The notes under the pieces are model-generated. The model was not told the DNA's origin. It made no database searches and worked only from the letters and a program-made list of their open reading frames with translations. Both the position numbers and the translations under genes were made by a program. From Bilabrum cf. latius (lineage: Eukaryota), in assembly GCA_965178125.1 (NCBI GenBank), contig OZ237739.1:1302001-1366000 (forward strand): DNA of 64,000 nt. The letters are read 5' to 3'. Positions within the stretch are counted from its first letter, which is position 1. Each line of letters starts with the position of its first letter. Of this stretch, positions 678 through 46,774 are shown piece after piece.

Positions 678-1997
678 ATGGCGGAAAGCTCGCCAATTCA
701 CGTGGTTCTCCTTGGTGACTCTACCCTTGATAATGTTGTGTGGGTGGGGGATCCAGGTGAAGCGGTTCCCAGCGTGTTGCAGTCGGAGCTCGCATCTGGC
801 GCAGGCGGCGATGGAACCGCAACGGATGTCCGTGTCACAAACTATGCGGCGGATGGCTTCACTGCAGGAGATGTATTGAGAGGCAATGGAGCAACGATAA
901 GCTGGAAGCGGCGCAAGGACACGGGGGATCCATTCCCGACATCGTCACCGTTTGAGACATTTCAGCCCCTCGTTTTCCTCGATTCTCTATTTCCTGCCAA
1001 ACCAGACGATAAAGAGGGCGGTTCTCCGACCCATGTTTTGTTGAGCGTCGGTGGGAATGATGTTAGGCACGTGCTCGGCGACATGCTCTCGCTGCCGGAC
1101 GCACTGAGGAGCCTTGTGGCCTCGTACTCGGGCGTTCTTGAGCAACTGCTCGCCATGAGGGAAAAGCACGGCGTACAAGTGGCCATCATGACCCAGTACC
1201 AGCCATGCTTTGCTACAGACTCAGAGTACTACGGCGTGTATTCCAGCCTGGCAAGCGCCGCAGGAGCGCTCGGTGTGGGGGGCGGTGCCAGCCTGAGTGG
1301 TGCCGGCGGGACCTCGCGCAGCGCGGTAATCGCCACTGGATCTGCCGTCCTACTGGCGGTAATGCGGCAGGTGTACGCCCCCATCATGGCCCTCGCATCC
1401 AAGCACCGCATCCCCGTGATCGACCTGGCCTCCTCCCTCGACCCCAGGGAGGCCTCGCTCTACTCGCACCAGATCGAGCCAAGTGCCGCGGGGGGCAAGC
1501 TGATCGCACAGCTTGCGGCGCACGTGATAGCTCGTCATGACTTCAAAGGGGCGGCAAAGGTGTACCGGGTTGAGCCTCCCTCGACTGCGAGGGCAGCTGG
1601 TGCTGGTGCTGGTGCTGGTGCTGGTGCTGGTGCTGGTGCTGGTGCTGGTGCTGGTGCTGGTGCTGGTGCTGGTGCTGGTGCTGGTGCTGGTGCTGGTGCT
1701 GGTGCTGGTGCTGGTGCTGGTGCTGGTGCTGGTGCTGGTGCTGGTGCTGGTGCTGGTGCTGGTGCTGGTGCTGGTGCTGGTGCTGGTGCTGGTGCTGGTG
1801 CTGGTGCTGGTGCTGGTGCTGGTGCTGGTGCTGGTGCTGGCACCAAGGCGGAAGCGTCAGGAGGTGGTGCCGCACCCGCTGCCAGCGGTGGAGAGAAGTG
1901 CGGCGAGACCGAGAGAGACGCCGAGAGAGAGGGCATCTCTGTTGTGGCCAGCGATTTGGGCGACGGTGCTGCATGGGCTCCGAAGGCTTTCACCTGA
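678..1997 (+). CDS. SGNH/GDSL-type hydrolase with a (Gly-Ala)n low-complexity tail, 439 aa
   Basis: Block I VVLLGDSTLDN, block III LSVGGND and C-terminal HQIEPSAAGGKLIA are present. Ends TGA. Confidence 0.85.
   Translation: MAESSPIHVVLLGDSTLDNVVWVGDPGEAVPSVLQSELASGAGGDGTATDVRVTNYAADGFTAGDVLRGNGATISWKRRKDTGDPFPTSSPFETFQPLVFLDSLFPAKPDDKEGGSPTHVLLSVGGNDVRHVLGDMLSLPDALRSLVASYSGVLEQLLAMREKHGVQVAIMTQYQPCFATDSEYYGVYSSLASAAGALGVGGGASLSGAGGTSRSAVIATGSAVLLAVMRQVYAPIMALASKHRIPVIDLASSLDPREASLYSHQIEPSAAGGKLIAQLAAHVIARHDFKGAAKVYRVEPPSTARAAGAGAGAGAGAGAGAGAGAGAGAGAGAGAGAGAGAGAGAGAGAGAGAGAGAGAGAGAGAGAGAGAGAGAGAGAGAGAGAGAGTKAEASGGGAAPAASGGEKCGETERDAEREGISVVASDLGDGAAWAPKAFT
1596..1840 (+). repeat. Perfect coding microsatellite (GCTGGT)~41 encoding (Ala-Gly)n
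   Basis: Uninterrupted hexamer array of about 245 bp, in frame in the SGNH gene. Confidence 0.97.
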
Positions 1998-2130
1998 GCT
2001 TAATAATGAGGGTTTGTGTCGTTATAGCCTAACATTTGTCACGTTGCCACCGTCCCGACACCCAGCGCTTCCAAACCGGAACCAGACCAGTGGATCCGTT
2101 GTCGTTGCGTTCACCTGTATAGCGTCTTTT

Positions 2131-5100
2131 ATGCAAGGGTCGGCACGATATGAAGGCCAGTTTGCACCGATAGATCCAACAACTAGAACTGCCACAGTAT
2201 CGGGCACGTTGAGGGCTCAGATCGCGCGGGGACTAGGTGCGAGCCTTCAGGTGGATGCTACTGCCGAAATCCGCAGGATTTCAGAGTCCCGAACAATGCG
2301 TACGACGCTGGCTGCCACAGCAGCCAAAGATGGGTATTTGGGAGACGTTAAACGGGACCGTGCGTTGGCTAAGGTGCCTCGATCGGTGCTGAGCCGCACG
2401 GCAGTGCGAATTGGCGACGCAACTGCGTCCGTTGCAGGTGCAAACCAAGACGCTGCCGCAGTTGCGAATGACATCGATGAATTCGAGCGACGTTTAGAAG
2501 AACAGAAGAAGGCAAAAAAGGAGAAAAGCAGGCGCAAGCGCGGCAAGTCGACCGCAAAGTCAGTTGGGGCCCCAGCTGCTGAATCAAAACATGAAGTGAC
2601 GTCCGCCATGCGAGAGCTGAAAGAAATCGTCGACAGAGAACAACGAGACGGCACCGCAGGCATGCTGGTCGCGAAATCCGCGACCGCGGCACCGAGAGGC
2701 GTCACTACCGGCAGGGCGCTCGCCTCGGATGCTGCCCCGCTCGCGGCGGGAGCTACGGCCGCCATGCGACCAGACGTGCTCGCCTCCGCCGTCCGCGATG
2801 CAGATCTCAGCAACATGCGAGTGCAGGCCTTGGACGACGAGCTGCGCCGCTTCAGCAGCTTGGAAGACCTCCGTGTGAGCGGGGCGTAGATGCCGCTCCT
2901 CGAGCTGGGCTGCCTGCCGCCCTCTATCCGCAGCGTGCAGGCATACGGCTCGGGGATCGAAGAGGTCGCTTGGAGGGAGGGAGAAGGAGAAAAGAGGGGG
3001 GGAATGTCAGGGGGGTGGGGAAGCCGGCCGCCCAGCCGCGTCACTCGTCACACGATGGGCACAAGTCCGGGCTCAAGTGCCGGCCCCAGCGCAAGCGCCA
3101 GTCCCAGCGGCTCGCCCCGCCCGGGCGCCTCCCGCCTTGGGGTCACCACCGCCTCGGATGGAGGCATTCGGAGCCGAATTTAGGCTCGAATGGGCGAGCA
3201 GCTCACTCGGCTGGTGCACCTGGGTCTGGGGCACAACTCGATCCGGAGGCTTCCGGCTGACTTGCCGTCGCGGTGCCATGCCCTCCGCAGCCTGGACCTC
3301 GGGTGGTGTTCCCTGGAGAACGGAGAGAACCTTCTGCAGCAGGCCGAAGAGCTCTCACGTCTGTCCCACCTAAACACCGCTGGCAACCCCTGCTGCATGG
3401 CGGTGGGGTTCAGGGCCGAGACGCTCGCCAGGCTGCTGGGCCCGCCTTTGGGCCGTCGCACCATCGTGCAGTGCAGCACGGGCGCCCCTGGCCTTTCGCT
3501 CCACGAGCTGGACGGTGCCGGCGCAGTCAACGGATCCAGGAGGTATCTGAGAGAGGTGCGAGCTAGGGTGGAGGAGGCTGCCGTGGGCGGAGGCGAGCAT
3601 GGGACTGGGGCTGGGGCTGAGGCTGCTGCGGTCGATGGTGCATCAGGGCTGGGCGGGATGTCTCCACCGGGACAGCAGGCGGTACCGCCGATCGAGGGGA
3701 TATCTACTTCTGATATCTCTGGCTCTGAGGCAGCTAGTGCTAGCCCTCGTGGCTCAGCTGATATCTCTGGCTCTGAGGCAGCTAGTGCTAGCCCTCGTGG
3801 CTCAGCTGATATCTCTGGCTCTGAGGCAGCTAGTGCTAGCCCTCGTGGCTCAGCTGTAGCAGTTCCAATGTCTGGCCTGGCGCGATTGAACGATTTCCTG
3901 AAGCGTGCCCAGCGCTGCAGTGGCATGGCCTGGGAAGCTGCTGCTAGTTCACAGTAGGGCAAGTCACAGGGGAAGGAAGGGACAGGCGATGGCTCTCCTC
4001 CTACGTCTCCCTCTGATGGATACACAGAGGGCTCCAAGCCAGCCACCTCCCGCAGCAGCGCACGGAGCAGCAAGGGCAGCAGCAAGGGAAAGGGGGCCAA
4101 GGGCAAAGGCAAGACAGCCTCCCCGCGCCCTGCATCCGGCGCAGGTAACAGCAGCGGGGATGAGTCCGCCCAGCCAGCAAAGCCTCGCTTCAGGGCGGAA
4201 GTGTCCCCGCCGCTGCAACGGGTCCTGTAGCCGCTGCAGCCCGGCCTCAAGTGGAGGGGGAGCGCAGCCTCAGGGGCGTACGCCCTGGCCGGCCCACCTG
4301 CTCTAGAGGACGGCCTGGTGCTCCTGCGGGTGGGTGTGGGCGCGCTGTGGGGCCTACCCGCAGTGGAGCCGGTGCTAATGAGGCTGCTGCCTAGTCCCGG
4401 AGGTGGGGCGGGAGGTGGGGCGGGAGGTGGGGCGGCGGGGGGAACTGACCTTGGGTACGACCAGTACCTGGAGTTGCTTGCAGCTGCGATTACGCGGCAG
4501 AAGTAGGTCGATGATTCCGCGATGGCAGCCGTGGCAGGGACCGACGAGGGTGAGGGTAAAGAAGCTGCAGGCGGGGGCGAGGCAGTGGGCGATTCTGCGG
4601 CAGGACGCTTGGGCAAGCCATCGCCGCGGGCAGGGAAAGGAAAAGGAAAGGACAAAGGCAAGAACGAAAAGAAGGCAAAGGGCAAAGCCAAGGGCAAGGG
4701 CAAGGGCAAGGGCAAGGGCAAGGGAAAAGGCGGTGGGGCCGGCGAGAAGGCCGAGGAGCTGCGGGGTATCCGGCAAGCGTGCCAGCGCGCAGCAGCAGAT
4801 GCCATATTGGACTGGTGCGCAGCGGGGGCCAGGCGCACGCGTCTGGTCCTGTCGGTGGGTCTCCGCGTGCCGCCGCCGCTGGCAGCAGAGCAGGCTAGAA
4901 CGGCAGACCCGCTCGTCACGGCGGGGGTGCTGTTTCCGGCGGTGCCATCGGCGCAAGAGCCCGAGGCAATGACGCAGGCGGTCTCGGCGGCGGCGGCTGC
5001 TGCTGTGGCAGTAGACTCCGAGTCTGGCGATCGAGGTTCGGAATCAGGTTCAGGGAGTCCCAAGGCCAATGGCCGCAGCGGAAACAGCAAGGGAAAGGGG

Positions 5101-6717
5101 GGAGCGTCCAAGGGCAAGAAGGTGTCCCCGAAGGGAAAAGGAATGGGCAAAGGGTAGGAAGAAGAAGAGGAGGATGATGGGGGAATGCGGGAGGTCAAGG
5201 AGCAAATCAGCATCGCCGAGGAGCTGCGTCGGCGCATGTGGTCGAGGGAACTGCCGCCGGCAGTGGTGCCTGACTTGCGGGCATGCGTGGCGGCCCGTCC
5301 GTCTGTCGCAGTCAGGGACGCAGCGGCACACGAGGGGCTGTGGGTGTCTCTGGTGGAAGAAGAGCTGGACATGGAGGTGGGGAAAGTGGACGGGAGCGGC
5401 GGAGATGCCGCTGAAAGTACGAGAACCCCACCTGATTTCTGGGAGTCCGTCTCCGGTGTGGTGGAGGCTGTGCCTGAGGGTCATGTAGCGGAGCATGAGG
5501 TGCTGGCAGCCGGGGCCTCTCTCCCAAGATAGGACTAGGACTAGGGCCAGGAGGGTGTCAAGAGTAGCAGCATCGCGGGCCTGGACCTGGCGGGGTACGA
5601 GGCACTGAGGCGGAAGGAGGACCGGGTGCTGCAGGGCAAGGAGGATGAAGATGAAGATGAGGAGGAGGAGGACATAGCGGAACCAGGTGCTCCTGCCGGT
5701 GTGGCTGCATCGGGCGCGGCCATCCCAGGAGGATCTCCTCCGCACCGGCAGCAGCCGAGGGTGCTACGGAGGAGGCTCCTGGCGGAGGGGTACCTGCCCG
5801 CTGGAGACCTGCCGTGTCCAGGCACGGAGCATCAGTGGGCAGCTGAGGCAACCGGCAAGGAGGCGTGGCAGGCGGCGGCACGGGCTGCGGAGTGCGGGGG
5901 TGCCGCAACTCCAGCCGAAGCGCTTGCACTGGAAGGGGTTTCTGCCTCCAGTATGGACGATGGCGATGGTGCTCAGGCAAAGGGCAAGGGCAAGGAGAAG
6001 AGCAAGGCAAAGGGCAAAGGGAAGGGGAAGAAGGGGGGGGCTGATCCGGAACAGGAAGATGTGCCACAACCCGCCGTGAGGCCAGTCTCCAAGGCACAAC
6101 AGGACCCTGCCGAAGCCGTGGCTGCGCGGCGCCGCGCTGGACAGGTTCCGCTGCAGCTCCACTGGCGCGAGCTGCCGTGTGCGTTGAGAAGGGCGGCTCT
6201 GGCGGTGTCACTGGCCAGGGTGGTGCGGCGGCGCGGGGGTTAGGGCCTGGAGGATGTTCGGGGCAGCAGGGGCGGTGCTGTGGGTGGTGGAGAGGGGGGG
6301 GAAGAGGAGGAGGGCGATGGCGGGGACGAGGCTAGGGCGCTTCGGGCAGCGGCCCAGGCTGTGCCCGCCCCCGCCGTGCTGTCTGCCCCGGCATGCCAGG
6401 CGGCCAGTGGTGCGACGAGCGGGAGCATGGTGTTTGGGGTGGCGTTGAGGAGGGGCGAGGGCGAGCTGGACGAGGTGCAGGGTGTGCAGGGGGTGATGAA
6501 GGTTAGTCTCCGAGCCATCAAGAGAGGGTTGTAGTCGTGGCCACTGGATGGCGAGAGGGTGCCCAAGGAGGGTGGCCCTGCGTCTGACAAAGAGGGCGCG
6601 GTGTCTGGAGACGGTGGTGGCGAAGCAGCGCGTGCGACTGGGATCCCGCCCCTCGTGGCTTGGACATCGTTCGAGGCGCTGCGGACTGGGTGCTGGTTCG
6701 CAGAGGATGGCTCTTAA
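2131..6717 (+). CDS. Leucine-rich repeat protein (LRRC43-like), ~1528 aa with TAG=Gln
   Basis: One frame from ATG 2131 interrupted only by 11 TAGs (2887, 3181, 3955, 4228, 4504, 5155, 5530, 5536, 5542, 6241, 6532), ending at TAA 6715. LRRs: FSSLEDLRVSG, LTRLVHLGLGHNSI, LRSLDLGWCSL, and cap LSHLNTAGNPCC. The LRRC43 resemblance is from memory. Confidence 0.75.
3710..3856 (+). repeat. Three perfect tandem copies of a 48-bp coding unit (DISGSEAASASPRGSA)
   Basis: CTGATATCTCTGGCTCTGAGGCAGCTAGTGCTAGCCCTCGTGGCTCAG starts at 3710, 3758 and 3806. Confidence 0.95.
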
Positions 6718-6877
6718 TCTGCGGCGGCGCATCGATGGTGGCTGTGGACGCGACGGGGGCTTGCAGGTATTTGAAGTTTGCTCCTTGAATTTTCCACCTA
6801 GGAATTCGCAATCCACCGCACGGTGACCGTGCACTGCACCGGCAGTGGCCCTTGGACTCGGAGCGTCAGCTAGATAT

Positions 6878-8887
6878 ATGCTTTTCTCTACTTTTTTTCG
6901 TGCCATGCTCCGACAATGTGGGTCGCGGTTCTTTCGACTGAGCTGTGGGAAACACCGCAGCGTGCAGACCCGGTCCTTGCTCCCCAGCGGACGAATTTTG
7001 AAGTCCATCACCAGCAAGTGCTTCGCGATGGATAGCAGAGAGGTATCCCGCTCCATCGCTTCATCGGCGACAAATTCTCAATCTCAGAGGCAACGAAAAG
7101 CTAAAGCATCGTAGGGATAGTAGCAGCAGCAACCGCAAAAGAGATCTGAGCCTCCCAAGAGTAGGAGAGGAGCTGGCGTGGAGAACCAGGTAGTGCTATC
7201 GATGTCGGGGATCACCAAGGTGATTCCAGGCAACCGATAGCTGTTGAAGGATGCAAGCATGTCATTTTGGCAAGGCGCTAAGATTGGGGTCCTTGGTCTT
7301 AATGGATCAGGCAAGAGCACACTGCTGAAGATTCTGGGCGGAGTTGACAAGGACTACGATGGCGAAGTCACGCTCAAGACGGGCCTGCGAGTCGGGTATT
7401 TGCACCAAGAGCCTCCAATGAGGCAAGGATCAACCGTTAAAGAAGCGATTTTCGAGGGCTTGCGGGAGCAGCTGGATCTGATCGACCGGTTCAATGACCT
7501 CAGCAATCGAATGGGCGAGCCAGACGCCGATTTCGACAAGCTGATTGAGGAGCAGGCAGAGGTTTAGGGATTAATCGAAGCCGCGGATGGATGGAACCTG
7601 GAGCACCTGGTAGGAATCGCAAAGCGCGGCCTGAACGTGCCCCCGGACGACGCTCTGGTGGATTCGCTTAGCGGCGGGGAGAGGCGGCGTGTTGCCCTCT
7701 GCCGGCTGCTGGTCGAGAAGCCCGACCTGCTGCTGCTGGACGAGCCCACAAACCACCTGGATGCAGAGTCCGTCCACTGGCTTGAGAGGTTCCTGGAATC
7801 GTATCCCGGTACTGTGCTTGCGGTGACACACGACAGGTATTTCTTAGACAGCGTGGCCGGATGGATCCTGGAGGTGGATAGAGGAAATTTGTACCCTTAC
7901 GCTGGCAACTACAGGGTCTGGCTCGAGCGCAAGCAGGAACGGTTGAACTCGGAAGCGCGAGCAGACAAGGCGGCCAAGCGGGAGCTGGACGAGGAGCTCC
8001 AGTGGATCCGGGCGGGCACCAACGGGAGGCAGCGCAAGAGTGGTGCTCGGATTAAGGCATTCGAAGGCAAGCAGGACGATCTGCTGGCCAAGCAGCAGGC
8101 GCAGAGGTTCAAGACGGGAAGGATCGCCATTCCCCCTGGTCCTCGCCTGGGTCACGATGTAGTGCAGGTGGAGAACCTCACCATCTCCGTGCCCAAGGAC
8201 CGGCCGACCGGGGGCGACGGTCGCGAGGGAATCGACACAGAGGACGATGGGTCGGGCGAGCGGAGGATTTTGGTGGAGGAAGCCACGTTTACCATTCCCC
8301 GTGGAGCTCTGGTGGCCGTGGTGGGGCCCAATGGGGCGGGCAAGAGCACGCTCATGCAGACCCTCCTGGGACTCCGGAAGCCAGACTCTGGCAAGCTCGT
8401 GCTCGGCAAGACGGTGCAGCACGCGTACGCAGACCAGGGGCGCAACCTGGAAGAAGGCTAGACGGTGATACAGGCCGTCGCTCAGAACCAGGAGAACGTC
8501 GCGGTGGGAGACCTCACCGTCCACACGCAGCACTACCTCGCCAAGTTCAGCCTCTCGGGCGCCATGTCCAAGAAGATGGTCAGGGACCTTTCCGGCGGCG
8601 AGCGGTCGCGGGTCCATCTTGCTCGAACTCTGCTGAAGCCATGCAACGTGCTTGTGCTGGATGAGCCCACGAACGATCTCGACGTGGAGACTCTGCGCAG
8701 TCTGGAGGAGGCGCTCGAGCAATACTAGGGAAGCGCTCTCGTCGTCAGCCACGACAGGTACTTCTTAGACAGAGTCTGCACTCACGTGCTTAGTTTCGAA
8801 GGAAATGGCAAGCTACGTTGGTTCGAAGGGTCCTTTTCGGACTGGGAGCAGCGCTACGGCGCCAAGACCAAGCTGGCCACCTCGTGA
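6878..8887 (+). CDS. ettA: ABC-F ATPase, EttA-like, with a putative mitochondrial presequence, ~669 aa
   Basis: Motifs [105 protein letters not shown] and [12 protein letters not shown]. Continuous through 7 TAGs (7112, 7118, 7121, 7238, 7565, 8459, 8726) to TGA 8885. Start is 6878 or 6905. Confidence 0.92.
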
Positions 8888-9007
8888 ACCTTGCGGCTAC
8901 CGCTGCATGACGTGTACATTGTATTGAACAGAAACAACCAGTTGCGTGTGGTAGTGAAACTAGAAGAGAACAGATTGAGAGACAGTCAACAACATGGGCA
9001 AGTTGCA

Positions 9008-11464
9008 TCACTTGCCGCCCTTGGCCTTTGTGGCCTCCGACTTTGGCAAAAAGGCGGGGGGCTGTCCTCCCGCACCTGCACCTGCTGCACCTGCAGCGAC
9101 TTTCTTGCCCCATTCGCCAGAAGGAGCTGCGCCCGCGGGGGCAGCCGCTGCCTTCCCTCCCTCGCCGAGGCTCGGGAACGACCCAGGCTGGACGGTGTTT
9201 TTGGGTGTCGCCGATGACGAGGACTTCGCCTTGCTGGAGGAACCGCCCCCCTGCCCACCCTTCTTGCCACTGCCACCTCCACCGCCACCCCCGCCGCCAG
9301 ACCGATTGCTCCTCCCCCTCCCATTCCCTCTGCCATTGCCCCCGTTGTGCTTGCCACCCCCACCCCCACCGCCACCCCCGCGACGGTCACCACCACCACC
9401 ACTGCCCTGCTGCCGCCCCCGACCCTATCCCTATCCCTATCCCTATCCCTATCCCTATCCCTATCCCTATCCAGGACGCGGCTGCGCGAACCCCTACACA
9501 GGCACACCCCCCCCCTGCATGGGCGGCCTCGGAGCCTGCATGCCCCCTTGCATGCCAGCGCCCGCCACCGGCAATGCCATGCCTCCATGCTAGCCGGGCA
9601 TACCTGGCATGCCACCAGCGGGATACCCCATCATCGGCGCCCCAGGACCGCCAGGAGGTATCCCCTGATAGAACTGCGGAGGCGGGGGCGCGCCCATGTA
9701 TGGGCCTGTCGCACCCTGCACGAATGGCTGCGGCATGCCCCCCATGGGCACCCCTCTCGGAGGCATGGTGCCGGCCCCCGGACCGCCCATCCCGCCTCCC
9801 ATCGGCATGGACATGGGCACGCGGGCACCGCCCCAGCCGCCAGCATGCGGGGGTGCCATGCCCATCGAGGTGTGCACTGGCGGTGGGCCCATTGCCTGGC
9901 CAGGCCCTGCCATCGGCATGCTAGGGTGTGGCCACCCCTAGCTTGCTGCCATGCCCGGGCGTGGGCCCGGCGCTGACTGGCCTGTCGGCTTGAAGACGGG
10001 GGCGTTCGGATCTAGCTTGAACGGTGCGGCATTAGGGTCGAGCTTAGTCTTTGCCTTGGCTGGTGCCGGTGCTGGAGCCGGCGCTTGGCCCTAAGATGCC
10101 GCAGCAGGTGCAGGTGCAGGAACAGGTGCAGGAGCAGTGGCCGGGGCCAAGGCAGCAGCTGAACCGAGTCTCTAGTTCAGACCCATGGAGAACTGCCTCA
10201 AACTCTCCACCTCTGTTTGGCGATCCACTGAAGCAGGCTTTCCTTTAGAGCTGGAGCTCTTGTGCACCAACTTGTGACCCTTCTTCCCACCGTGCCTGGA
10301 CAGGGCCTTGCGATGGGCGTGCCCATCCTCTTCGAGCTTCTGGAACACCCTTGCCTTGACGTCCAGCTGCTTCTTGGCTTGTTGGTTCCCGACGGGTGCA
10401 GCAGCCGGGGCAGCAGCCGGGGCAGCAGCCGGGGCAGGAACGGGAGCAGGAGCGGGAGCAGGAACGGGTGCCGGGACGGTACGGCGAACGTCAGAGAACC
10501 TTCCCTCGGAGTCTTTCTCGTCCTTGCCACCCGCCGCTGCCCCGGTCCTCCAGCTCTTGGCACCCTCCGCCGCTCCCGGCGAGCCCATGGGAGCAGCTCC
10601 ATGGCCGATGGATTTGCCCTTGCCTTTGCCCTCGATGGCTGCGGCCGCCCTGGCGATTTTCCTCCGGTCCTCTGCAGAGAGCTCCCTCTCGTCCACCTTT
10701 TTGGTCGTGTAGTCCTGCTCCTTGAAGCCGTCGAACTTGACACCGATGTTCTCATTGGCCTTGAACTGATCGAAGGATTTGCCGGAGGAGATGGCGTCGT
10801 TCGGGGCGCTCCCGGCGTCCTGGGGCTGCAGCCACGACTGGTCCACGTCCTCCAGCTTGCGCTCGCCGCCGGCTGCACCGCCGTGCCCCTGGCGTGCCTG
10901 GGCCACTCGCTGCCCGATCTGCGCGTCCGTCGTTCCAGAGATAGACCCGGATGCCATGGACGTGCCGCCGTCGGGGAAGTACGCATCTTCTGCGCACATC
11001 TCTTCGATGGCAGTCCACGGGATAGTGAGGAAGTTTGCTTGCTTCTTTGGAAGTGAGATCGCCGACTCAAGAGAACCCTTCTTCTGCGCGCAACAAAAAA
11101 TAAATCATGCATGTTGCGTAGAATGATAGGAGTCCATACTTAGGCCACGCCACGATAAATTCCAGGCCAGTGTGAACTTACGGCGCAGTAATAGTGCTGC
11201 AGGTTCACCGACTGCTGGCTCGAGTTCGACCTGTCGCTTGAATGGTATTGCCCAATCCATTCCGATCCGTCGACACAATAGACAGTGACCTTCTCTCCCT
11301 GCGAAGATGCAAACAGGCATATTGGCACGGGTCCAGGTATCACCAGGGTGTAGCCGCACGTAGAACTCACATTCATGCCGCACGTGCGCAATACTGGTGA
11401 CCAAGCCCCGAGTTCTTACCTGGAGAGCAGTGAATGCATAAAGGACGCGCTCAGCCGATGACAT
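9008..11464 (-). CDS. ATXN2: Ataxin-2/Pbp1-like protein (Lsm, LsmAD, tandem PAM2, Pro/Gly/Met-rich and RG-rich tail), ~745 aa; exons 11464-11420, 11298-11182, 11083-9008
   Basis: Sm-like start ERVLYAFTALQGEKVTVYCVDGSEWIG, LsmAD FDQFKANENIGVKFDGFKEQDYTT, and PAM2 KLDPNAAPFKLDPNAPVFKP. Two GT-AG introns (121 and 98 nt) keep frame. About 13 in-frame TAGs. Ends TGA 9010-9008. Confidence 0.85.
9425..9472 (-). repeat. (GGATAG)8 coding repeat = (Gly-Gln)8 under TAG=Gln
   Basis: (CTATCC)8 on the plus strand, read GGA TAG in the ataxin-2 frame. Confidence 0.9.
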
Positions 11465-14500: not shown

Positions 14501-16962
14501 GCTCGCCCGCAGCGCCGAAAGCGTTGACAGCAGCTGCCGCAGCAGACTCACCGACAGAGCCAGGTCGTCGAACTTCTTCTGCTCGAGCCACTCAAGGGTC
14601 CGCTCCGAGCATCGCTTCAGGGTGAACGCGTCCATCACGGAGGAACAGCCGCCCAGCGCGGGCGAGTGCACCACAGGCTCGGGACCGAGGGCACCCAGCC
14701 TCGCTCTGGTGATCCCATCGGGCGCCTTGGCGTCGAACTAGGTCCCTTTCAGTGCCGCCCTCGCCTTGGCCTGCTGCATTATCCTCTTCCTGGACGCCGC
14801 CCATTCGCTCCTCTGCCTCTCTGCGTCTTTCTTGCCCTGCGCCTGCCTCGCCCGAGAGAAGCTCAGGCACCACGCCGCCAGCCGGAAGAAGTCCTGCTCC
14901 GCGCGGCTGTCCGAGTACTCTCGCTCATCCCGGGCCAGACGGTGCTTCACGTCATCCAGGAGCACGGTGAGGCCACCGGTGGAGAGCAAGTCGCCCATGG
15001 TCTCGCACACCGCAACGGCGGCCGCGTGCGACTCCGGACCGCGGAGCGCAGCGGCGGCCGCGGAGCCTACACGCGCAGCCTGCGCCACCGCTGCCCCAGA
15101 GCCAGCCATGGCCCCCTTCATGCCCAGCCTGCTGCCGCCCACGCGCTTCCTGCCCGCCCCGGGCTGGGATCGCATGCCCAGAGCCAGCGCGCTGCTCTGC
15201 CGCGCCGCCATCAGCTCGTCAACCGTGTGGTGCAGGCGCCCGTCGGCGCCCTGTCCCTGCGCCCGGAGGCGGGCCAGGGTCGCGTCGTCCGCCTGCGCCA
15301 CCTCCTCCGCCAAATCCCCCCCTGGGGGCGGGGCTGCTCCGGCTCCGGCGCCGGCGCCGCTCGGCCCCGGAGTGCCCCCGGCGGGCTGGGCCGGACCTCC
15401 GGCACGACCAGCCACAAAGATGCCGGAAAATCGGGAGTGGCGGGGCCCCCCGGTTCCGCTGCGGCGCGCGGCGCCACCAGTGAGGCGGTTGAGGGTCAGC
15501 AGCGAGTCGCCCGAGGCACCCGCCGCAGCGGCGGAAGACGACGAGGACGAGAAAGACTTGGTCGGGGTGGGTGCGATGGTCTGGCTGACCACGCGACCCC
15601 GTCTGGACCCGCGCGATCCGCGGGGACCGACACCCCCCGCAGCAGCCGTCCCCCCCTACCCCTCCCCCTCCCCCTCCCCCTCCCCCCTGGACGGGGACTG
15701 GAACGCGAACCGCCCCGACTCCGCCCCGGCGCCACCCCTCCGACGGCCCGCCTTGCCCCCCGACCCCCCGGCAGGCCCGCTCCTGAAGGCCCCGGCCAGG
15801 CTCCTCTTGGCCTCCATCGCGAGCCGCTCCTTCTTTGCCTTCTCCTCCGCACGGGCCTCCTCGTCTGCGGCGGCCTTGGCGTCCACCGCCTCCTGCGGGG
15901 AACACGACTCGGTGAGCAGCGTGAAGAAGCGGAGCAGCATCCTCGAGTAGTTCTCCGCGAAACCGGAACTGCGCGCGAGCGACCTGGCCAGCAGGACCGG
16001 CACCCGCGCCAGCCCCGCCTGGTGCATGGTCCCCACCCACTCCCAGCACAGCCGCTGCGCATCGGCCCGCTCTGACGCGCCGAGAGCGCCCGTGATCTGC
16101 TGCCTCTTCTCTTTGGCAGAGCGCCCCGCCATGCCGCTGTCCGGGGGCACCGAGTCATCAACCACGGAGGTGGGCCTCAGTGCGAGCATGTTGTTGAGGA
16201 AGTAGAGGCCCAGCTCGATCGTGTTGGTGACCGCGGCTGCGCGGTCGCCGGCCTTGGCACGGCCCATGGATCGGATCTGCAGGGCCTCGCGCAGCCGCTC
16301 GAGGACCACGCCTGCCACGACGGGCGAGCGCGCCACCGCCTGCTTGACGTCCAGCAAGGGGCCGTGCAGGCGAAGCACGGCGAAGGGGTGTGTGGACGGG
16401 TGCAGCGGCTCTGTCATGCGAGTGATCAGCTGGATGCAGTGGGGCAGCGTGGTTCTCTCCCTGCGGTGAAGAGAGGGAAATGCAATTGGGCCGGGCTGGT
16501 ACTGGGTTTCGGTCAGCAGCAACGGGTCTCGTCAAAAGCAGTCGCACTCTCTGCCTCACTCTACCTCGTCGTCAAAATAGTGCTCGATGAAGGGAATAAC
16601 TCGAGTTTGTGCAACTTTCCACTCTAGCAGCTTCTGGCGGATCCTCGTTTCCTGGTATTTGCTGTCGCGTTTCAAGTATCTGCGACGGGATCGGTGCGAG
16701 GGACGCGGAAGGCAAGGGGTGGATGCAGTATCATATTCCGTCGGCTGCTGCTTTACAGAGGAACTCACTGATGCAGCGCTCGAAGTGCACGCTCGGAATC
16801 TTCGTTCCGTCTGAAGACGCGAACCATTTCCTAATTCTCAGCATCGTACTCCTTCTTGAAGGAGCCAATGGTGTTCTGCCAGTTGAACAACTCCTCATCT
16901 GCGTCCCGCCGTTTCGACTGCTCTCTTCTCGTCATGGCAATGAGTCCATCTTGGATCTCCAT
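11597..16962 (-). CDS. TIMELESS: Timeless/Tof1 replication-fork protection protein, ~1725 aa; exons 16962-16769, 16679-16560, 16460-11597
   Basis: The spliced N-terminus ALRALHQYLKRDSKYQETRIRQKLLEWKVAQTRVIP...CIQLITRMTEP matches the Timeless pattern, and the RHSRFSG motif is present. Introns are 89 and 99 nt. Seven in-frame TAGs. Ends TGA 11599-11597. Confidence 0.8.
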
Positions 16963-17118
16963 GACGGCCTGTCCTGCCGCCACCAGCTATAGTTGCACCA
17001 GCAAGCACCGATTTTGAAATCTGTATGTTCCGCTGCTCCGGATTCGTTTTGCGCGGCGCCACTTTGGATTCCCCCCGGACAAGCAGAGCTGTAGCACTGG
17101 AACCAATAGGATTCCAGC
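16963..17118. promoter_or_regulatory. Probable bidirectional promoter between Timeless and DENR
   Basis: The divergent start codons are only 156 bp apart; promoter function is inferred from geometry. Confidence 0.45.
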
Positions 17119-17999
17119 ATGGCCGGTGTTGCTGAGGGTTCATCACCATTTGTAAATGAGGATGGGACGCTCAAGGAAGTGAAGACCGATTATTGCCCCC
17201 GTGAGCAACCAGAATAGGTTGATCGTTCTCAGCCCGCCGAGAGCATGCCAATCCACGCGCATCATAACCATGTTCGTCCAATGAATAATGCATCTATATC
17301 TATGCAGATTGCGGGTTGCCGTCTGAGTTTTGTGGATTTGCACCGGAGTACGAAACGCTGTGCAAGCCTCACTTGGCCGAGACGAACCCCGAGTTGCTGG
17401 CTGAGATCGAGGATGAGCGAGCAAAGGGGTTCAAGCTTGTGTCGAAGAAAGCGCCAAAGGTAGCCGCTGCGCCCGCAGAAGCTGCCGACCCGGCAGCAGG
17501 AGCAGAAAGCGCCACTGCACCAGCATCCGGCGCGGGAGCCGGCGGCGACGAAGCCGCACCTGCCGAGGCGTCTGCTGAAGGCGGGGACCCATCTGCACCA
17601 CCGCTGAGTCCAGAGGAACGCGCTAAGCGCGAGGCTGAGGTGAAGGCGAGAGCGGCCCGCGCCGCGAAGTTTGTCATGTGCGTGCTTCGCGAGACACGCG
17701 CGAAGAAGAACAAGAAGAACAAGAAAGACAAGAAGAGGAACAAAGTCTCTACCGGCATCGTGGGGATCGATGCCGCGGGTTTGGACCCCAAGGAGGCCTG
17801 CAAGACGCTTGGCAAGCGCATGGGCACCGCCTCCGTGCTGACCAAGAGCGACTCTGGCAGGCCTGAGATCTAGCTGCAGGGCGACCACATGAGGATCATC
17901 CCGAGGATCCTGGTGGAGGAACTGGGCGTGGACAGCGGGATCATTCGGATCGTGGAGGAGATCGACGGCAAGCTGCGAGCCAGGAAAGCATTCGCCTGA
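17119..17999 (+). CDS. DENR: Density-regulated protein DENR/Tma22 (Zn-binding N-terminus plus SUI1 domain), ~257 aa; intron 17201-17307
   Basis: Spliced DYCPHCGLPSEFC, then RNKVSTGIVGI..LDPKEACKTLGKRMGTASV and EI[TAG]LQGDH. Ends TGA 17997. Confidence 0.88.
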
Positions 18000-19662: not shown

Positions 19663-20124
19663 TCCGAAACATCCGGTGGCGAGTGCTGCATAAATCCAAT
19701 TTAATGCCGAAGAACCTGATCTGCTATCATTGATGCGCTATGTTGCAGCAGCAGGGGCATTGCTAGTTCGTAGCACAGAGGCACAGGACCGTCGGCTGGA
19801 ATTCAGCAATCTCGTAGCTATCTTGCCCGCTCTGCGAGCCGTACCTCCGATCATAACACTAATTTGATTTGAGGATTAATACACTAGCTATCAGTGTTTG
19901 TTCACGCGCGCACGGCTCGTAAATTGCAATTAAGCAAGAATACAGAAATACATTTGAAACAGCTCGGTACAAACACGCTGATCGAAACCGGAAGTGGCGA
20001 CCACCGAAACGCAGTCCGTTGCATTTGCGACCTTCCCAGCTATCACGTTGGACCTATGAGCAAGCTGGTTATGGAAACCAGCTGATTGTTGTATTGATTA
20101 GATTATCGTACGTATCTGCTTGCT

Positions 20125-23100
20125 ATGGAGGAGAGTAAATCGGAGAAGGGGGTGGACGACCAGACGGAAAGAATGGAGCTGGCAGTCCAGCCTTACTTCG
20201 TGCCTGGTCTGGCTGCGTCTGCGGTGCGCGCGGCAATTGAGCATGCTGATGAGGTGGAGCGCCGCACGGGGTGGGTCCCACAACAACCCGTCCCGTACCT
20301 GGTAAAGCTGCTGGTGTCCCGTGACCCGAACTCGCTCCGTGCGAAGCACCCAAAGTACGGCCACAGCCTAGGACTGTCAGAAGCAAGGCTGTATGCAAGT
20401 CTCCGACCGCCGAAGAGCTATCCAGTGGGTCTATTGGTCACTTTGCTGGAAAGAGAGCGAGCACTTGCCCTGCTGCGCCGCACTTCGGTAGAACGAGTGC
20501 GGGAAGCCAAGCGGAAGCTCATGCGAAAACTACACAATGACTGGGCGCGCGCCCGCAACATCCTAAAGCGCGTTTCGTGGGGTCCTGCCCCCGAAGACGT
20601 GCACGAAGAGCTCCGCGAACAGGGGAGAGCCGCGCTCGGTGCCCCCTGGGGAGCAGCATCCCTGGCAGGTGTCGGAGCAGGTGCTCGGGCTGGCAGTGAT
20701 ATGGGGCTGGGTGAGGGCTCGGCGCGCGAGGGTGACCGCGGGAAAATACAATTTTCTCGATTGGATCGCTGGGCGGGCCCCCCTGGGGAGGAGCCCCTGG
20801 ACCGGCTGAAGCTGAAGCTGGCGGCGGCTGCGGACGAGCAAGCAGGTGCTTCTGCCACGTTCGCGCTCGCCCCGGAGAGCGCCGCGGCCACGTCCCTGGG
20901 CGCGCTCCGAGCCCACCTGGACACCAGACTAGGTCTCAAGGCTCGCAGGAGAAGCGCGGTAGAGACAGACCACAAGGTTCTGGCCCAGGCAGCAGCCATG
21001 GGCATCCTCACGGGTCCTGGGGGCAAGCCACCAAGCCTACCTGCCGGCAGGTTTCCCGCCCTACTCCCCGCAAGCAAGGCGGTGCACAGCGGTCCAATGA
21101 GCGGCGTGGAAGGAGGAGACAGCGGCAAGGCGAACAGGCCAGGCCGTGGTCGCGGGGGTCAACAGCACCAGCACCAGCAATAGCCATACGTCAGGCGAAG
21201 GGGGTCCACAGCTGTGCCTGACGTGCAGACTGCCCTCCGGCTCCGGGCCATGGTGGCCACTGACGTGCCCTCCAGCGACTTGTCCCTGGGAGTACGAGCG
21301 CAGCACGGAAGAGCAGCGGGCGGGGCAGGGAACAGAGAGGGAGCGGCAGCAGCAGCTGCTGCGGCAAGCAGCACTGGAGATGGCTCGTATCCTCATGGGC
21401 CTGCTGCGGGCAGCTACTCGGGCTTGGCCGCGGGTGGTGGTCAGACTGCACGATCGACTGCTCAGAGCACCGCCCGGAGTGGTGACGGCGTTGGTGCTCA
21501 CGAAGATACACGCTAGCCTACCGCCATGCAGCTAGTGCCTCGGAGCGGAGGTGCAGCTGAGGCTCGCGCTAGGGCCAAAGACCTCACTGCGGCCACGGAC
21601 GTGCTGCTGCCCCCAGACGTGGACTTGGGCCTTCGCGGGCCGCTGTGGCAAGACTGCCTCTACTCAGACTATGCGCACAGGGCCCCACTCTAGCGTCTCG
21701 ATTTCCAAGGCATGACGTCGTACATGACGGACCCGCTGCTGCTTCGCATGCTGGGGCAGACGGGTGTTCTGTCGAGCCTTCGAGCCCTGCTACTGGCAGG
21801 CTGCAGGATGGTTACCGGCCCTGCGCTTCTCCCGGTGGTGTTCCAGGCGCAGCATCTGGTGGAGCTGGACGTCAGGCGCTGTGAAGGGCTGGGGGCGGGC
21901 TTCTTCCTCGGTCTGCTGGAGGACTCGCCTCCTCCTGCTGTCGCCGGGGCTGGGAGCAGTCGCAGTACTCGAATGCGGGGCAGGCGCACAGCGAGGCCGG
22001 CTGCTCGCCTGTCGCCGATCAGGGAGCAGGCAGGTCAGGGCGATCCATCGGCCGCCAAGCCCAAGACAAGCGCGCCCAGGGACCGACTGAAGGTGCTTCG
22101 GGCGGGCGGGTGCACCTGCGTCGACGGAAGGGTGGCGGCAAGGCTGTGCGCGGAACTGCGAGGCCTAGAATCAATTGATCTTTCGCGATGTCCCCGCATC
22201 ACGGATAAAGTGCTGGACGCTCTAGCAGGCCGACCAGGCGCTGTAGGAGGCGTGGGAGAGGGTGGTGGAGGGGGTGGCTCCAAGACGAAAGCAACGGCTG
22301 GATGGGGCCAGATCGAGCAAGTGTGGCTGGACCACTGCAAGGAGTTCAGCGAGGAAGGCTTCATGGCTCTCGCCTCTCATGCGGGGAGCCTCAAGCGACT
22401 GTCTCTGGTGGGCTGCAGGCAGCTGTCTGGATCGGCGTTTGCGGGCTTGCCTGCCCCTGTGGTGCGTCGGAGGCGGGTGGTCATGGTCAGTTCCAGGGTG
22501 CTGAAGAAAGAAGGCGTTCTTGTGGACGACGACGGCGCCGCAGCAGTCATGCCTGCACACGAAGGTGGGGACCAAGGCATGCAAGGCCCTGTAGGCAAGC
22601 TAGTGGGCGAGGGCGATGGCTTTCCCTCGGCAACGGACCGACCTGTCGTGGTGGCACTGGCCAGGCACGACCTTTCCGCTGCCCGGGAGCAGGACGAAAG
22701 GCCGTTGGTAGGGCACCGAGAGCTGCCGAACATGCTGGTTGCGAGGCTCATGCGAGCCACTGGGCTCGAGATGGATTTCCCCGAGAAGATTCGGGACGAT
22801 CACGCGCAAGCTCTGCTGCTAGCAAACCGTCTCGGCTTTGACCAGGAAGTGCGGGAAGCGGCCGCCGAGGTCGACGCTGTGCTGGACGAGGCGTTGGAGC
22901 TGTAGGAGAGGATTGGCAATGACCCTGCTAGGCACGCCAGCAGCACCATCCGCTAGTCCATCGATCCGCACCAGGAACAGGACGACGAGATGCTGCTAAT
23001 GCTGGCAAACGCTGTGAATCCAACCGTGGACAAGCACATGAATTCCACCAGCGCCGCCCGCGGTTCCGCCTCCGCAAGTGGCGGCAGGAAGAAAGCCATG

Positions 23101-26100
23101 GCTCGCCGCGCAAGGAGGCGTAGCGTCACAATCGGCGCTCCCGTACTGGAGACGAGGGGTGACCTGCCCCTCGCTGTGGTGCTATGGAGGCGCAGGCATG
23201 CAGTGAGGCGCTCCGGGATCGACCGCTTGAAGCCGTCCGGGGGCGTGATCGAGCAGCGCGCCGCGGCGAGCCGCAGCGCGGGCGAGGGTCACCTGGCAGC
23301 CGCTGGTGCTGTGGTCTCCAAAGAGGGCAACCTAAGCAGCATGGAGGCGAGGGCAGCCGTGGGAAACGCCAAGGGACTGGGCAGGCGCAATGCCGGCACC
23401 GGACGGCCTGTGGAATCGTAGTACGTCCATGTCAAGGGCAAGCTCGGAGTCAATCCAGACCACGACGTGATCGGCGGCGGCGGCGAGGTGGGCGCTGGTG
23501 GAGGGCACGGTGCAGGCCACGAGGGCGGGGATGGGGGTGGGCTGACTCTAGGGGAGAAAGTGACGCGCAATAGGCGAGGCAGCCTGGCTGGGATTGACTT
23601 GTCGGGGACACAGGCCATGGAAGCCGCCGCTGCAAAGATCCTCGGCAATACGGGGCAGCTTCCGCATGGTGAGCCCGGGGTCGATGAAGCGGACTTGGGA
23701 AGGGGAGAGTCGCGCGCGTCAAGGAGGTCCATGGAGTCTAGCAGTAGCAGCAGCAGCAAGCAGGCACTCGCCGCGGCTGCAATTGCTCGGCAGCGCGAGA
23801 CGGTGATCTTCCTTGCGGCTGCGGCTCTTAGGAAAGGGCGCCGATTGGACTGGGCCCAGGGCCTCGAGAGCAGGTGTGCCCTGGAGACTCTGAACCTAAC
23901 AAAGTGCGCCCTCGTGGATGATGAAGGGCTCGAGTACGTTGCAAGGGCGTGCGGTGAGCTCAGGTCGGTGCTGCTCTCGAGGTGCGGGAGAGTGGGTCCC
24001 CGAGGGCTGGCTGCCTTGCTCACAGGCTGCCAGAAACTGGAGGAGCTGGACCTAACCGACTGCGTGCAGATCGACGACGGAGCTCTGCAGGTTGCGGTGT
24101 CCTCCAGCGCGGCGGGCGGGTCCAAGCTTCTGCTACAAGGATCAGACAGCGGTGGGGCCAGCCTCGCCGCCAAGCAGCTGCAGAAGGACAACGTGGATGA
24201 GGGCATCGAGAAAGTGGCTCGCGAGATGGCCACGCCAGCCGCACAGGCCCGCAAGGCCGCCCTCGCAATGGAAAAGTCGCGCAAGCGGGAGCAGGCACTG
24301 GTGAAGCTCGCGCTCAACGCAGGCACGGAAACGAGCGGTCGGCGAGGCTTTGCGTCGGGTGCGATCCCCGACCGCTTCGAGGCGGACGGCGGGGAGGACC
24401 AGACGTGGCTGCAGGCGGTGCGGCAGCCTGTGCCATTGAAGGTGTTGAAGCTGACTGGGTGTCACAAGGTGAGCGATGCCGGTGTGGACATCCTGGCGAG
24501 TCGGTTCGGTCGCACGCTGCAGGAGCTGTGCCTGGAGGGCCTGTACCGAGTGACGGACGAGGCACTTGCGTGCATCGCACGAGAGTGCTACGGCCTGCGC
24601 GTGCTTCGCGTCGGTGGCAGGTTGAATCTGCAGGTGGTCGCGATGAGGCGCGACGAGGCAAGGGGCGAGGGTGAGGGCAAGGAGGCGGCACTGGGTGGTG
24701 GCAGCAAGTACGTGATGGCCGTACGTGCGATGGATCCCGGTGACGACGATGGAGTCCTAGAATCCGATGGGGACGACGACGGGCCGAAGAAACAGGGTAG
24801 GAAGGTAGCTCTGCCTTCGATCGGGGTGCAGAAAGTGGCGCCGGAGCGGCGGCAACACACGTTTTTTGGCCAGCCCAAGATCACGGGGGCGGGTCTCGGC
24901 CTCCTGTTCCGGTCCCTTGCCATTCGGGCCTCGCTGGAGGTGCTAGACCTCAGCAAGTGCGTGACTCTGGATAGCAACGACATCCAGGCGATGCTGCCGG
25001 CGCCACCCGCCAACTGGAAGGACGCTCACGCTCGGCGCGCAGCCAGACAGAGACGGAAGGCGGCAGAGCGAGCAAAGCGCTGGCGCAAGCCCCGCCGCCC
25101 AGGGTCTCCGGTCCCAGGTCGGCACATCCACGGCTTTGTTTTGCCGGGTAGAATTGGTGGTGATGCGGGTCTCGACCACCCGCTGGTTGCCCCAGGGCGG
25201 GCGTACTCAGACACAGGAGAGCTTGCGATGGTCCGTCGACCGCGCCTTATTTCAGATCAGTCGGACGGGTACGTTGGCGGGATGGGAGCAGGTCCGGCCT
25301 CGCCCTCCTCGGGCACCGGTACTGGCATAGTATCCGCTCGGGATGGTCAGGACGCTGGGATGCTTGCTCTGGCAAACCAGGCACATCGACCGCCCGCCGA
25401 GCGCCAGACCCATCGTCAGGCCACCCCGACGGGGCACAGCCAGCGGCGCATGAGCACGCCTGCATTCTCCCCTGTTGGGGTGTTTGTGGCCCCTGCTCGC
25501 TCCCGAGCCATTTCGTTTGACCCAGAACAGGTGCACAGCATGAAGAGCCCAGCCCTGGACCGAGGGGGGTTCGGAAACACTTCTCCGCACGCACGTGTGA
25601 TGGCCGAGTCGGCATCACCCGCACCTCCAGGGCAGGAGGCATACGGACGTGTCCGGATGGCCCCACTCACGCTGCCGTCGTCACCATCTACCGATCCCGT
25701 CACCAAGATGCTATTCGCAGCGTTTGCTGCTCTCGAATCGTTCGATGATGCCGGACGGTTCGTTGTACCTGCGAGCGCTGGCACGGGCGGCGGCACAGGG
25801 CTGGCAGGGCTGTCGATCAAGACGCAGCTGGATCTTCTGTCGGCTGCCAAGCGCCCACGCCGAGTCAAGTGGGGCGGCGCTCTCGGTTCCACTCAAGCCC
25901 CCAGCATGCTCATGCGCAGGTCTCACTTCGGCAAGCAGGAGTCGTGGCGCGCGCGCGCGGGCAAGAAGCTGGGCGCAGGTGGGCTGTCCCTCCTCGAGCT
26001 TGAGGAACACCCGGCCAACGTGTACAAGGGGTACTTTGACATGCGGCGGGGCTCTGCCGGTGCGGTGCAGCACAAGCTCCTGCTCCCGTCAGGCATGGAG

Positions 26101-32100: not shown

Positions 32101-32973
32101 TCCGGAGTTCGAGGGTCCAAGAAGGAGGGCGCCTCGAAGAAGGCCATGGCTCTGTCCAAGGCGAGCGGGCTCAAGTTCGGCGCGTCTGTCTCTGGGGGCG
32201 ATCGTGACGAGGACACGTTTCAGGACCCCGCGACGCAGAGGAGGTTTGCGGCTGTGCTGGCCAAGCGGCTCAAGCTGGACCGTCTCACGAAAAACTTCGA
32301 GGGTAAGGAAGAGCTCCTGAAGAGACTCAAGAGACAGGAGGACGAGATGCGGGACAGGCGCGCGTTCGGCGGGAAGAGGGACGGAGGCATGAGTGTAGTT
32401 GTGAGCTCGGCCAAGCTCCGGCTGGCGCAGGTCAAGCTGGGCCTGGATGACGACAGGAGGGTCAGGGGCAGGCCAGGGCGATTCGGGATGCGCGGGTGGG
32501 AGTGGACGCTGACCACCGCCCGGCCCGACTCGGGCGAGCTGACGGACGTTGACGTCAGGCTGCGTCAGGCCATCGCCTCACTGGAGGACGCGCGGGTGGT
32601 CGGGTTGCATCACCACGCAGCCATGCTAAGGGAGGTTAGGAGGCTGAGGAGGGAGCGGGCGCAGATGCGCGGCGTGATGGCCAATGCCCAGCTGGTGGAC
32701 GCACAGAGGGAGCAAGGAATATCTTTCTTCCGGTCTGCGGCCGACGAGGTCAGCGGGGAGCTGGCTGATGCAGAGCTTACGGTGAGGCGGCTCCGGGGTG
32801 AGGCGGGACGGCAGGAGCGGTCCGTGAGGAAGTTCCTCGGCGAGCTGGCAGAGCACGCGAGGGAAGAGGGCGGGATGGTCTCGAAGGACTGGCTGCTGGA
32901 GGCGTGCGACCAGCTCATGGCCGGGGTGGGAATCGAGGTGCGGAGGCACAGGGGGAAGAAGATCATCGTCTGA
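20125..32973 (+). CDS. Giant single-frame protein with Cys-containing (FBXL/AMN1-type) LRRs and multiple IQ motifs, ~4282 aa
   Basis: One 12849-nt frame broken only by 12 TAGs (21181, 21514, 21691, 22903, 22954, 23419, 27466, 27610, 29467, 29782, 30754, 31189), ending TGA 32971. LRR_CC examples: LESIDLSRCPRITD, LEELDLTDCVQIDD, LKLTGCHKVSD. IQ examples: IQRVWRGHVGR, IQKIARGTMAR. Confidence 0.85.
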
Positions 32974-46096: not shown

Positions 46097-46774
46097 GGTC
46101 GGTGTCCAGTAAGGCGGATAGAGACGTGATCGGCTGCAAGTGTTGGAGTGTCTGTTCACGCAAAACTGTACGATTTGTGGGTAATTGGTACTCCGCTGCA
46201 CCGAGCTTGGTTGTTCTATGAGGGCTCGCCTGCTCTTGCTGTGATCACACTTTTCTAATCTATCGGCGTCCAGGCTGGCATCGTTGCTGGGGATTGAGCC
46301 ACGTATTGGTACAAATCCGCTAGGAAAGTATCGTAGGGTGCACGAATGTACTTCTTGGAAGTCGCGAAGCACGGATCAAACATTGCGACCAGCTTGGATC
46401 AGTGATGCCGAATCCGTCTGTCGCCGGCGAGGTGACGAGTTCCGGTTCGCAAAGGCAGGATTCTACAGGGCTTTCCGGCATATTTCCGTGCAAGATGGGT
46501 GCATGTTGCTCTAATGATCCTACTGGGAATACTCAAAATTAGTCTGTGCCAGTATCTGACGCTGTCAACAGTGAGTGACGGGCCCATATCGCCGTATTTA
46601 AACGCCGAAAGCGACTAGCCCTTGCCTCGAAAGCTAAGCCTAGTGGGCCCAAAGGTCTGCCCATGAACTAGAATACCGCCTTTATAATACCAGAAGTGTC
46701 TTTTCTATCATATAACTTGATACGCGCAGGTGTTCGCGCCCGAACACGTGCCAGTGTGGTGAGGAGGATGGAGC

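Follow-up and report, generated by a model that had tools for sequence, protein, structure and literature searches.

In a 64,000-nucleotide stretch of contig OZ237739.1 (assembly GCA_965178125.1, positions 1,302,001 to 1,366,000 of the forward strand; the whole stretch is called the window below), the codon UAG very probably serves as a dedicated codon for glutamine, with UGA and UAA as stops. The gene that decides the question encodes an EttA-type ATPase of the ABCF family. Its frame carries seven TAG codons (7112, 7118, 7121, 7238, 7565, 8459 and 8726), with neither TGA nor TAA ahead of the terminal TGA at 8885-8887. Glutamine is preferred because the orthologue of a sister species exchanges TAG with CAG or CAA at six of the eight core sites, among them the invariant glutamine of a Q-loop. 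Across the whole window, TAG is used as a sense codon. The features of the gene are listed here, with NBD1 and NBD2 for the first and second nucleotide-binding domains.

6878..8887, plus strand: coding sequence of the EttA-like ABCF protein; possible in-frame start codons ATG 6878, 6905 and 7028, TGA stop at 8885-8887; the start codon is inferred
6878..7186, plus strand: N-terminal extension, basic and Ser/Arg-rich, ending in a Gln-rich run; without counterpart in bacterial EttA
7112..7123, plus strand: TAGs 7112, 7118 and 7121, inside the N-terminal extension and directly ahead of CAG CAG CAA
7238..7240, plus strand: TAG in NBD1, ahead of Walker A; sister codon ATC (Ile)
7295..7321, plus strand: NBD1 Walker A, GLNGSGKST (motif location in the translation)
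7406..7408, plus strand: NBD1 Q-loop glutamine, codon CAA, in the context GYLHQEP (alignment column)
7565..7567, plus strand: TAG in the NBD1 arm region; sister codon CAG
7667..7762, plus strand: NBD1 signature LSGGERRRV and Walker B with the catalytic Glu (motif location)
7868..8071, plus strand: inter-domain linker, Pfam ABC_tran_Xtn PF12848 (residues 280-347, E = 4.5e-9)
8189..8260, plus strand: lineage-specific, Gly/Asp-rich insertion (about 22-24 residues) where NBD2 begins; E. coli EttA is gapped opposite it by 7 and 15 residues
8324..8350, plus strand: NBD2 Walker A, GPNGAGKST (motif location)
8459..8461, plus strand: TAG in NBD2; sister codon CAA
8588..8683, plus strand: NBD2 signature LSGGERSRV and Walker B (motif location)
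8726..8728, plus strand: TAG six codons ahead of the NBD2 H-loop motif; sister codon CAG
8744-8764, plus strand: NBD2 H-loop motif VSHDRYF (motif location)

Exchange of TAG with glutamine codons in a sister species

The same EttA gene, likewise with in-frame TAG, was recovered in a metagenome contig scan at three loci from three separate assemblies (L001-L003), and L002 also contains the window's upstream neighbour gene. Compared with the window, the encoded proteins are 87.6% identical over 539 codon pairs, the nucleotides 76% and the third positions 47%. The last two values identify L001-L003 as a sister species and not as the same strain, and the distance between protein and third-position identity indicates purifying selection on the gene.

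None of the window TAG sites carries TAG in the sister gene. Opposite the window TAGs at 7565, 8459 and 8726, the sister species has CAG, CAA and CAG, and opposite 7238 it has ATC (Ile); in the reverse direction, the sister TAGs face CAA at 7406, CAG at 8030, CAA at 8720 and GTG (Val) at 8399. With both directions pooled, a glutamine codon stands opposite TAG at six of eight core sites, and the base rate in the same alignment, taken as non-Gln window residues opposite a sister Gln, is 5/514. The Gln codons of the window, for their part, stand opposite sister Q in 14 cases, TAG in 3, E in 2, K in 2 and P in 1. The exchange can be close in space: near 8726, a sister TAG lies two codons upstream, at the site of the window's CAA 8720. 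Given the eight partners, the likelihood of Gln exceeds that of the next-best residue, Glu, by 10^4.2 under BLOSUM90 and by 10^2.9 under BLOSUM62.

No single site shows what TAG means more clearly than the Q-loop of NBD1, where the sister species has TAG in all three loci (L001 166-168, L002 3863-3865, L003 1633-1635). The corresponding column, 7406 in the window, is Q without exception in the 117 homologues, and among the non-gap representatives it is Q in 135 of 138.

The public record shows what the standard code makes of this gene. A standard-code gene call, P0392, is a 204-residue fragment of the sister EttA that runs from just past the Q-loop TAG to the TAG that follows, and it was the sole sister fragment in a search for further relatives among shorter proteins. 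Loci L004-L042 are of bacterial type, with 35-59% identity and without in-frame stops. A scan of viral contigs for further relatives gave no match, and a scan of genome contigs with the window's ABCC protein gave just distant bacterial ABC genes at 24-35% identity.

The same partners bear on the possibility that the standard code applies, with TAG a true stop in the DNA that U-to-C editing restores to CAG in the mRNA. TAG differs from CAG by a single T/C change, and CAG is found at three of the six Gln partners. However, CAA at the other three is two changes away from TAG, and the nuclear genes of these 64 kb would need editing at more than 100 sites. Furthermore, a 2,028-nt contig of public run X6 corresponds exactly to 6908-8935 with 0 differences, its neighbours ending at 6861 and beginning at 8955; these bounds are transcript-like, which is only a hint, as the run is rated 'RNA? 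(probably DNA)', and both X6 and run X7 count as RNA by conjecture only. Editing is thus a highly improbable source of the pattern.

Homologue columns and codon use across the window

The initial annotation had proposed that TAG means Gln on the basis of EttA positions, with homologue columns dominated by another residue, such as Glu, counting against it. The TAGs it placed in the contexts VIPGNR[TAG]LLKD (7238) and EEQAEV[TAG]GLIEAADGW (7565) are all present, as are the context QY[TAG] and, at 7112-7132, the series TAG GGA TAG TAG CAG CAG CAA; TAG 8726 was confirmed to precede the NBD2 H-loop. The columns were tabulated over 117 homologues, namely the 120 best matches minus P0002-P0004, which are fused or duplicated (749-841 residues). 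Column 7238 holds E in 71, T in 15, Q in 10, V in 8, I in 6, P in 3, F in 2, and H and Y in 1 each; column 7565 holds Q in 89 and E in 28; column 8459 holds K in 86, N in 19, A and R in 4 each, and V, I, Q and H in 1 each; column 8726 holds P in 94, A in 17, D in 3, G in 2, S in 1 and Q in none. In the same order, the residues of E. coli EttA are H, E, K and P, and the picture is unchanged with 150 cluster representatives, which are more diverse. The bacterial motif with Q at 7238 that was offered in support of Gln holds in just 10 of the 117 homologues; Glu prevails in this column, and E. coli has His. Of the seven TAG columns three are unalignable, one is dominated by Gln (7565) and three by other residues (7238, 8459, 8726); by the refutation rule of the initial annotation, the Glu-dominated column 7238 would count against Gln. 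The conclusion of the initial annotation is well supported, but by the sister orthologue; the basis that it named is right just in part, and the family columns tie Gln with Glu.

If TAG stood for another amino acid, Glu (as in peritrich ciliates), Leu (rhizarian exLh), Ser (Scotinosphaera), Lys and Tyr would come into question. Glu fits the four alignable window TAG columns as well as Gln (log10 likelihood -6.0 for each, 117 homologues); besides its majority in column 7238, it is the most frequent residue at one TAG column of the ABCC gene, 62868 (E 70, D 26 of 120). At the eight core sites compared with the sister species, however, codons for Glu, Leu, Ser, Lys or Tyr stand opposite TAG at none and CAG or CAA at six, and one of the sites is the Q-loop with its Q in every homologue. 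In the same alignment the window residues Glu, Lys, Leu, Ser, Tyr and Trp stand opposite a sister Gln in 1/43, 0/28, 0/69, 0/28, 0/12 and 0/8 cases, and by the partner likelihood any other amino acid is disfavoured by 10^3 to 10^4. We therefore consider a different amino acid very unlikely.

A number of observations nevertheless weigh against glutamine. Two of the eight sister-species partners are Ile and Val. Gln dominates one of the four alignable window TAG columns among the distant EttA homologues, and the column likelihoods of Gln and Glu are equal, from which it follows that the EttA family alignment alone does not establish Gln. The three N-terminal TAGs lie in the extension, where their columns cannot be aligned to the homologues and provide no family evidence; against the sister gene, too, their placement is ambiguous in the protein as well as in the DNA alignment. 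(A fit by eye sets sister x-S-x-R-x-K-R against window Q-S-Q-R-Q-R-K with a three-residue gap; it was not counted as evidence.) For the upstream gene, L002 has the residues N, L, K, G, S, E, G, T, S, A and E opposite the 11 TAGs and never Gln, in a comparison that is uninformative for this fast-evolving gene, just 47% identical between the window and L002. The TAG columns of the ABCC gene that can be aligned hold E 70/D 26/P 17 (at 62868) and M 88/L 22 of 120 matches, never Gln, and its third TAG column is unalignable, so that this gene is uninformative as well. Variable columns of this kind would be expected if new TAGs arose from CAG at variable positions, and they add no support for Gln. 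Across the window, TAG is not enriched beside CAG or CAA (rank 24 of 61 codons), which reduces the TAGs inside the poly-Gln run, offered earlier as evidence, to an anecdote. A single gene and a single sister lineage provide all evidence for Gln. In the 64-kb window, a scan for tRNA genes found none, a search against Rfam families gave no match, and no eRF1 gene was among the Pfam matches of the window proteins.

The sense use of TAG is seen in the reading frames of the whole window. The 15 longest stop-to-stop frames sum to 27,741 nt, and to 56,355 nt (longest 12,876 nt) when TAG is read through; reading through TAA barely moves the sum, to 28,134 nt. Sixteen non-overlapping long open reading frames (ORFs) cover 55,053 of the 64,000 bases and contain 102 in-frame TAGs, compared with 597 CAG and 153 CAA; TGA terminates 14 of these ORFs and TAA the other two. 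A Pfam match was obtained for five of them (EttA, Timeless-like, LRR_6, RsfS and ABCC). These five contain 32 of the TAGs, each has TGA as its terminator, and their 8,579 codons are free of TAA and TGA, for which the off-frame rates are 0.26% and 1.5%, respectively. Four of the ORFs (16600-17607, 46763-48190, 54162-55766 and 56083-57648) have a weak coding signal and are possibly not genes.

TAA appears still to be a stop, although in 64 kb of GC-rich DNA a rare sense use is possible. It is less frequent than TAG in the six frames (305 vs 772), and its read-through extends few frames, by stretches whose GC content at third codon positions (GC3) of 0.33-0.55 resembles that of intergenic DNA. 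The upstream gene ends in TAA in the window (6715-6717) and also in L002, there at a different place.

A code in which UAG means Gln within genes and yet acts as a context-dependent stop for some of them, as in Condylostoma and karyorelict ciliates, would be hidden from this analysis, given that TAG was set as sense by construction and true TAG terminators are then invisible. In two of the 16 ORFs a TAG does lie near the TGA, two codons before it in 46763-48190 and nine codons before it in 54162-55766. However, about 0.9 of 16 ORFs would have a TAG in the last ten codons by chance (102 TAGs per 18,351 codons), and these two ORFs combine a weak coding signal with GC3 values of 0.63 and 0.52 and no family match. 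In the five family-matched ORFs, the last TAG lies 53 to 594 codons ahead of the TGA. Such an ambiguous code is unlikely, if somewhat less so than a different amino acid.

Finally, the gene might be a pseudogene, or its TAGs assembly or sequencing errors, as it is cut into pieces by the standard code and its sister copy was called as the fragment P0392. Against this, TAG is the sole interruption over 2 kb, without frameshift, TGA or TAA, and all catalytic motifs are intact; the same TAG pattern recurs across the 16 ORFs, of which one spans 4,292 codons; and the sister comparison (87.6% protein vs 47% third-position identity) speaks for purifying selection. In a check of the assembly over 6720-9000, contigs of four public runs cover the stretch without differing letters, two of them (X1, whose record is 212 kb long, and X5) over its whole length with 0 differences. 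For practical purposes, this explanation is refuted.

The EttA-type product and its surroundings

The gene product is a complete and probably functional EttA-type ABCF ATPase. With TAG read as X, it scores 712.8 bits against the NCBIfam EttA equivalog NF008775 and passes the cut-off of 599. With TIGR03719 (ABC_ABC_ChvD subfamily), it reaches 710.1 bits and stays under the cut-off of 806.75; the NBD2 insertion splits the match into two stretches, and the X residues cost score. Pfam assigns two ABC_tran domains (PF00005) and the ABCF linker PF12848. The solved E. coli EttA (PDB 3j5s, 4fin) matches residues 53-609 of the translation in one stretch (E = 6.5e-168) at about 50% identity, and the alignment crosses the four core TAGs without frameshift, TGA or TAA; it is gapped just at the 22-residue insertion that opens NBD2 and, over a shorter length, in the linker. 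Walker A, Q-loop, signature, Walker B and H-loop are intact in both NBDs, and a membrane domain is absent. Its putative activity, suggested by the identity to E. coli EttA, would be binding to the ribosomal E site and ATP/ADP-gated control of the first peptide bond.

The protein shares two ABC domains, all motifs and the linker with E. coli EttA and with mEttA and algEttA/cpEttA (PMC6723617). Features not shared with E. coli EttA are the seven TAG codons, the 22-24 residues inserted in NBD2 and about 50-110 extra residues at the N-terminus. The Gly- and Asp-rich insertion has no equivalent in E. coli EttA, and the sister species has a longer, different version of it. The N-terminal extension is basic and hydroxylated, and its columns are gapped in 111-114 of the 117 homologues. 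The closest full-length homologues outside the sister species (P0005, P0010 and P0067, about 53% identical) have basic N-terminal extensions too, and that of the sister EttA is comparable. Among the bacterial-like ABCF subfamilies of eukaryotes described by Murina et al. 2019 is mEttA, for which mitochondrial targeting peptides were predicted (PMC6723617), and an N-terminal extension is a trait that the window protein has in common with it. In composition the extension resembles a targeting peptide, which suggests import of EttA into an organelle.

The window has a GC content of about 63%. The presence of Timeless, an ABCC transporter, a leucine-rich repeat (LRR) protein of 4,292 codons and low-complexity repeats at this GC content identifies it as nuclear DNA of an intron-poor eukaryote. 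The LRR frame (20098-32973) is uninterrupted over its 4,292 codons with 12 in-frame TAGs, an LRR_6 match and no evident introns; in its second half, many Arg/Gln-rich, IQ-like repeats were seen by eye. On the minus strand, at 48365-50125, a 587-codon ORF contains an RsfS (ribosomal silencing factor) domain (E = 7.9e-19) with long non-domain extensions, and is the second factor for bacterial-type (organellar) ribosomes in the window beside EttA.

Several repeats lie in the ORFs adjacent to EttA. In ORF 9008-11104, the microsatellite (CCCTAT)x8.3 at 9423-9472 gives a minus-strand Gly-TAG dipeptide repeat, and 7 of the 13 in-frame TAGs of this ORF come from this one hexanucleotide microsatellite. 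The stop-to-stop frame 1528-6717 has at its 5' end a perfect (GCTGGT)x40.8 microsatellite (1596-1840), read as a Leu-Val repeat, which may lie upstream of the true start, and further along a perfect 48-bp tandem repeat of 3.1 copies (3710-3856) with a Ser/Ala-rich 16-residue unit.

Relation to known codes and consequences

A code with UAG as Gln and with UAA and UGA as stops corresponds to NCBI table 15 and has precedents among other eukaryotes. Among ciliates, the Phyllopharyngea have gene-sized chromosomes, unlike the window genes, which lie on long contigs such as the 212-kb X1 record. The anaerobic fornicate Iotanema would not be expected to hold organellar-ribosome factors such as the EttA-type protein and RsfS of the window.

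UAG has been reported to mean Gln, with UAA kept as a stop, in Iotanema spirale (PMC5304391) and in Protocruzia tuzeti and two phyllopharyngean ciliate lineages (PMC11687900). The window resembles these codes in that UAG alone is reassigned, to Gln, and UAA still ends genes (6715-6717 and L002). It differs in its stop usage, as the UAG-only = Gln lineages are described with UAA as the preferred stop (PMC11687900), whereas TGA ends 14 of the 16 ORFs of the window. It differs also in base composition, with about 63% GC compared with 27-54% given for Phyllopharyngea in the same paper. Codes in which both UAA and UAG (UAR) mean Gln have been described for many ciliates, hexamitin diplomonads, Streblomastix, Amoeboaphelidium and ulvophycean green algae (PMC11687900, PMC8271138). 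They share with the window the reading of UAG as Gln and TGA as a working stop, but the TAA of the window is without sign of sense use. The green alga Scotinosphaera, with UAG as Ser and UAA kept as a stop (PMC8271138), is similar as a eukaryote with organelles and a UAG-only reassignment, and dissimilar in that a Ser codon stands opposite TAG at none of the eight core sites. A literature search at the level of paper listings gave no report of a GC-rich lineage with UAG-only = Gln that is neither ciliate nor fornicate.

More tentatively, the window and L001-L003 quite possibly represent two species of an undescribed, or not yet code-annotated, lineage of GC-rich, intron-poor, organelle-bearing protists or algae that reassigned UAG alone to Gln independently and has UGA as its main terminator. 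The main reading, very probable in itself, is that the window comes from a GC-rich microbial eukaryote with a gene-dense and intron-poor genome, whose cytoplasmic ribosomes read UAG as glutamine and terminate mainly at UGA and also at UAA. On this reading, the seven TAGs of EttA are ordinary Gln codons, freely interchanging with CAG and CAA over evolution, and the protein (6878/7028-8887) would most likely be imported into an organelle and act there on bacterial-type ribosomes. For described UAG-only reassignments, PMC11687900 gives as mechanism a tRNA(CUA) that reads UAG together with the loss of UAG recognition by eRF1. By analogy, a tRNA-Gln with the anticodon CUA would decode UAG here and leave UAA untouched, and eRF1 would no longer recognise UAG.

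For the annotation of this genome, a table with TAG as Gln is needed, as the standard code miscalls every gene of the organism; the public protein collection already holds the cut sister EttA (P0392), and the proteins of the lineage are fragmented there. The comparison also carries a lesson of method: an alignment to a distant family can miss the meaning of a reassigned codon, because new TAG codons are mostly at variable positions, and here it was a close relative that decided. As a rule UAA and UAG are reassigned jointly, which makes a change of UAG alone a rare event (PMC5304391, PMC11687900). A GC-rich lineage with UGA as its main stop would add an independent case on how eRF1 and tRNA(CUA) separate UAG from UAA. 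It would also test whether GC pressure, under which TAA is rare and TAG relatively common, favours the UAG-only route. If the placement proposed here is true, the lineage would represent a further independent break of the coupling between UAA and UAG, outside ciliates and fornicates and at the opposite GC extreme.

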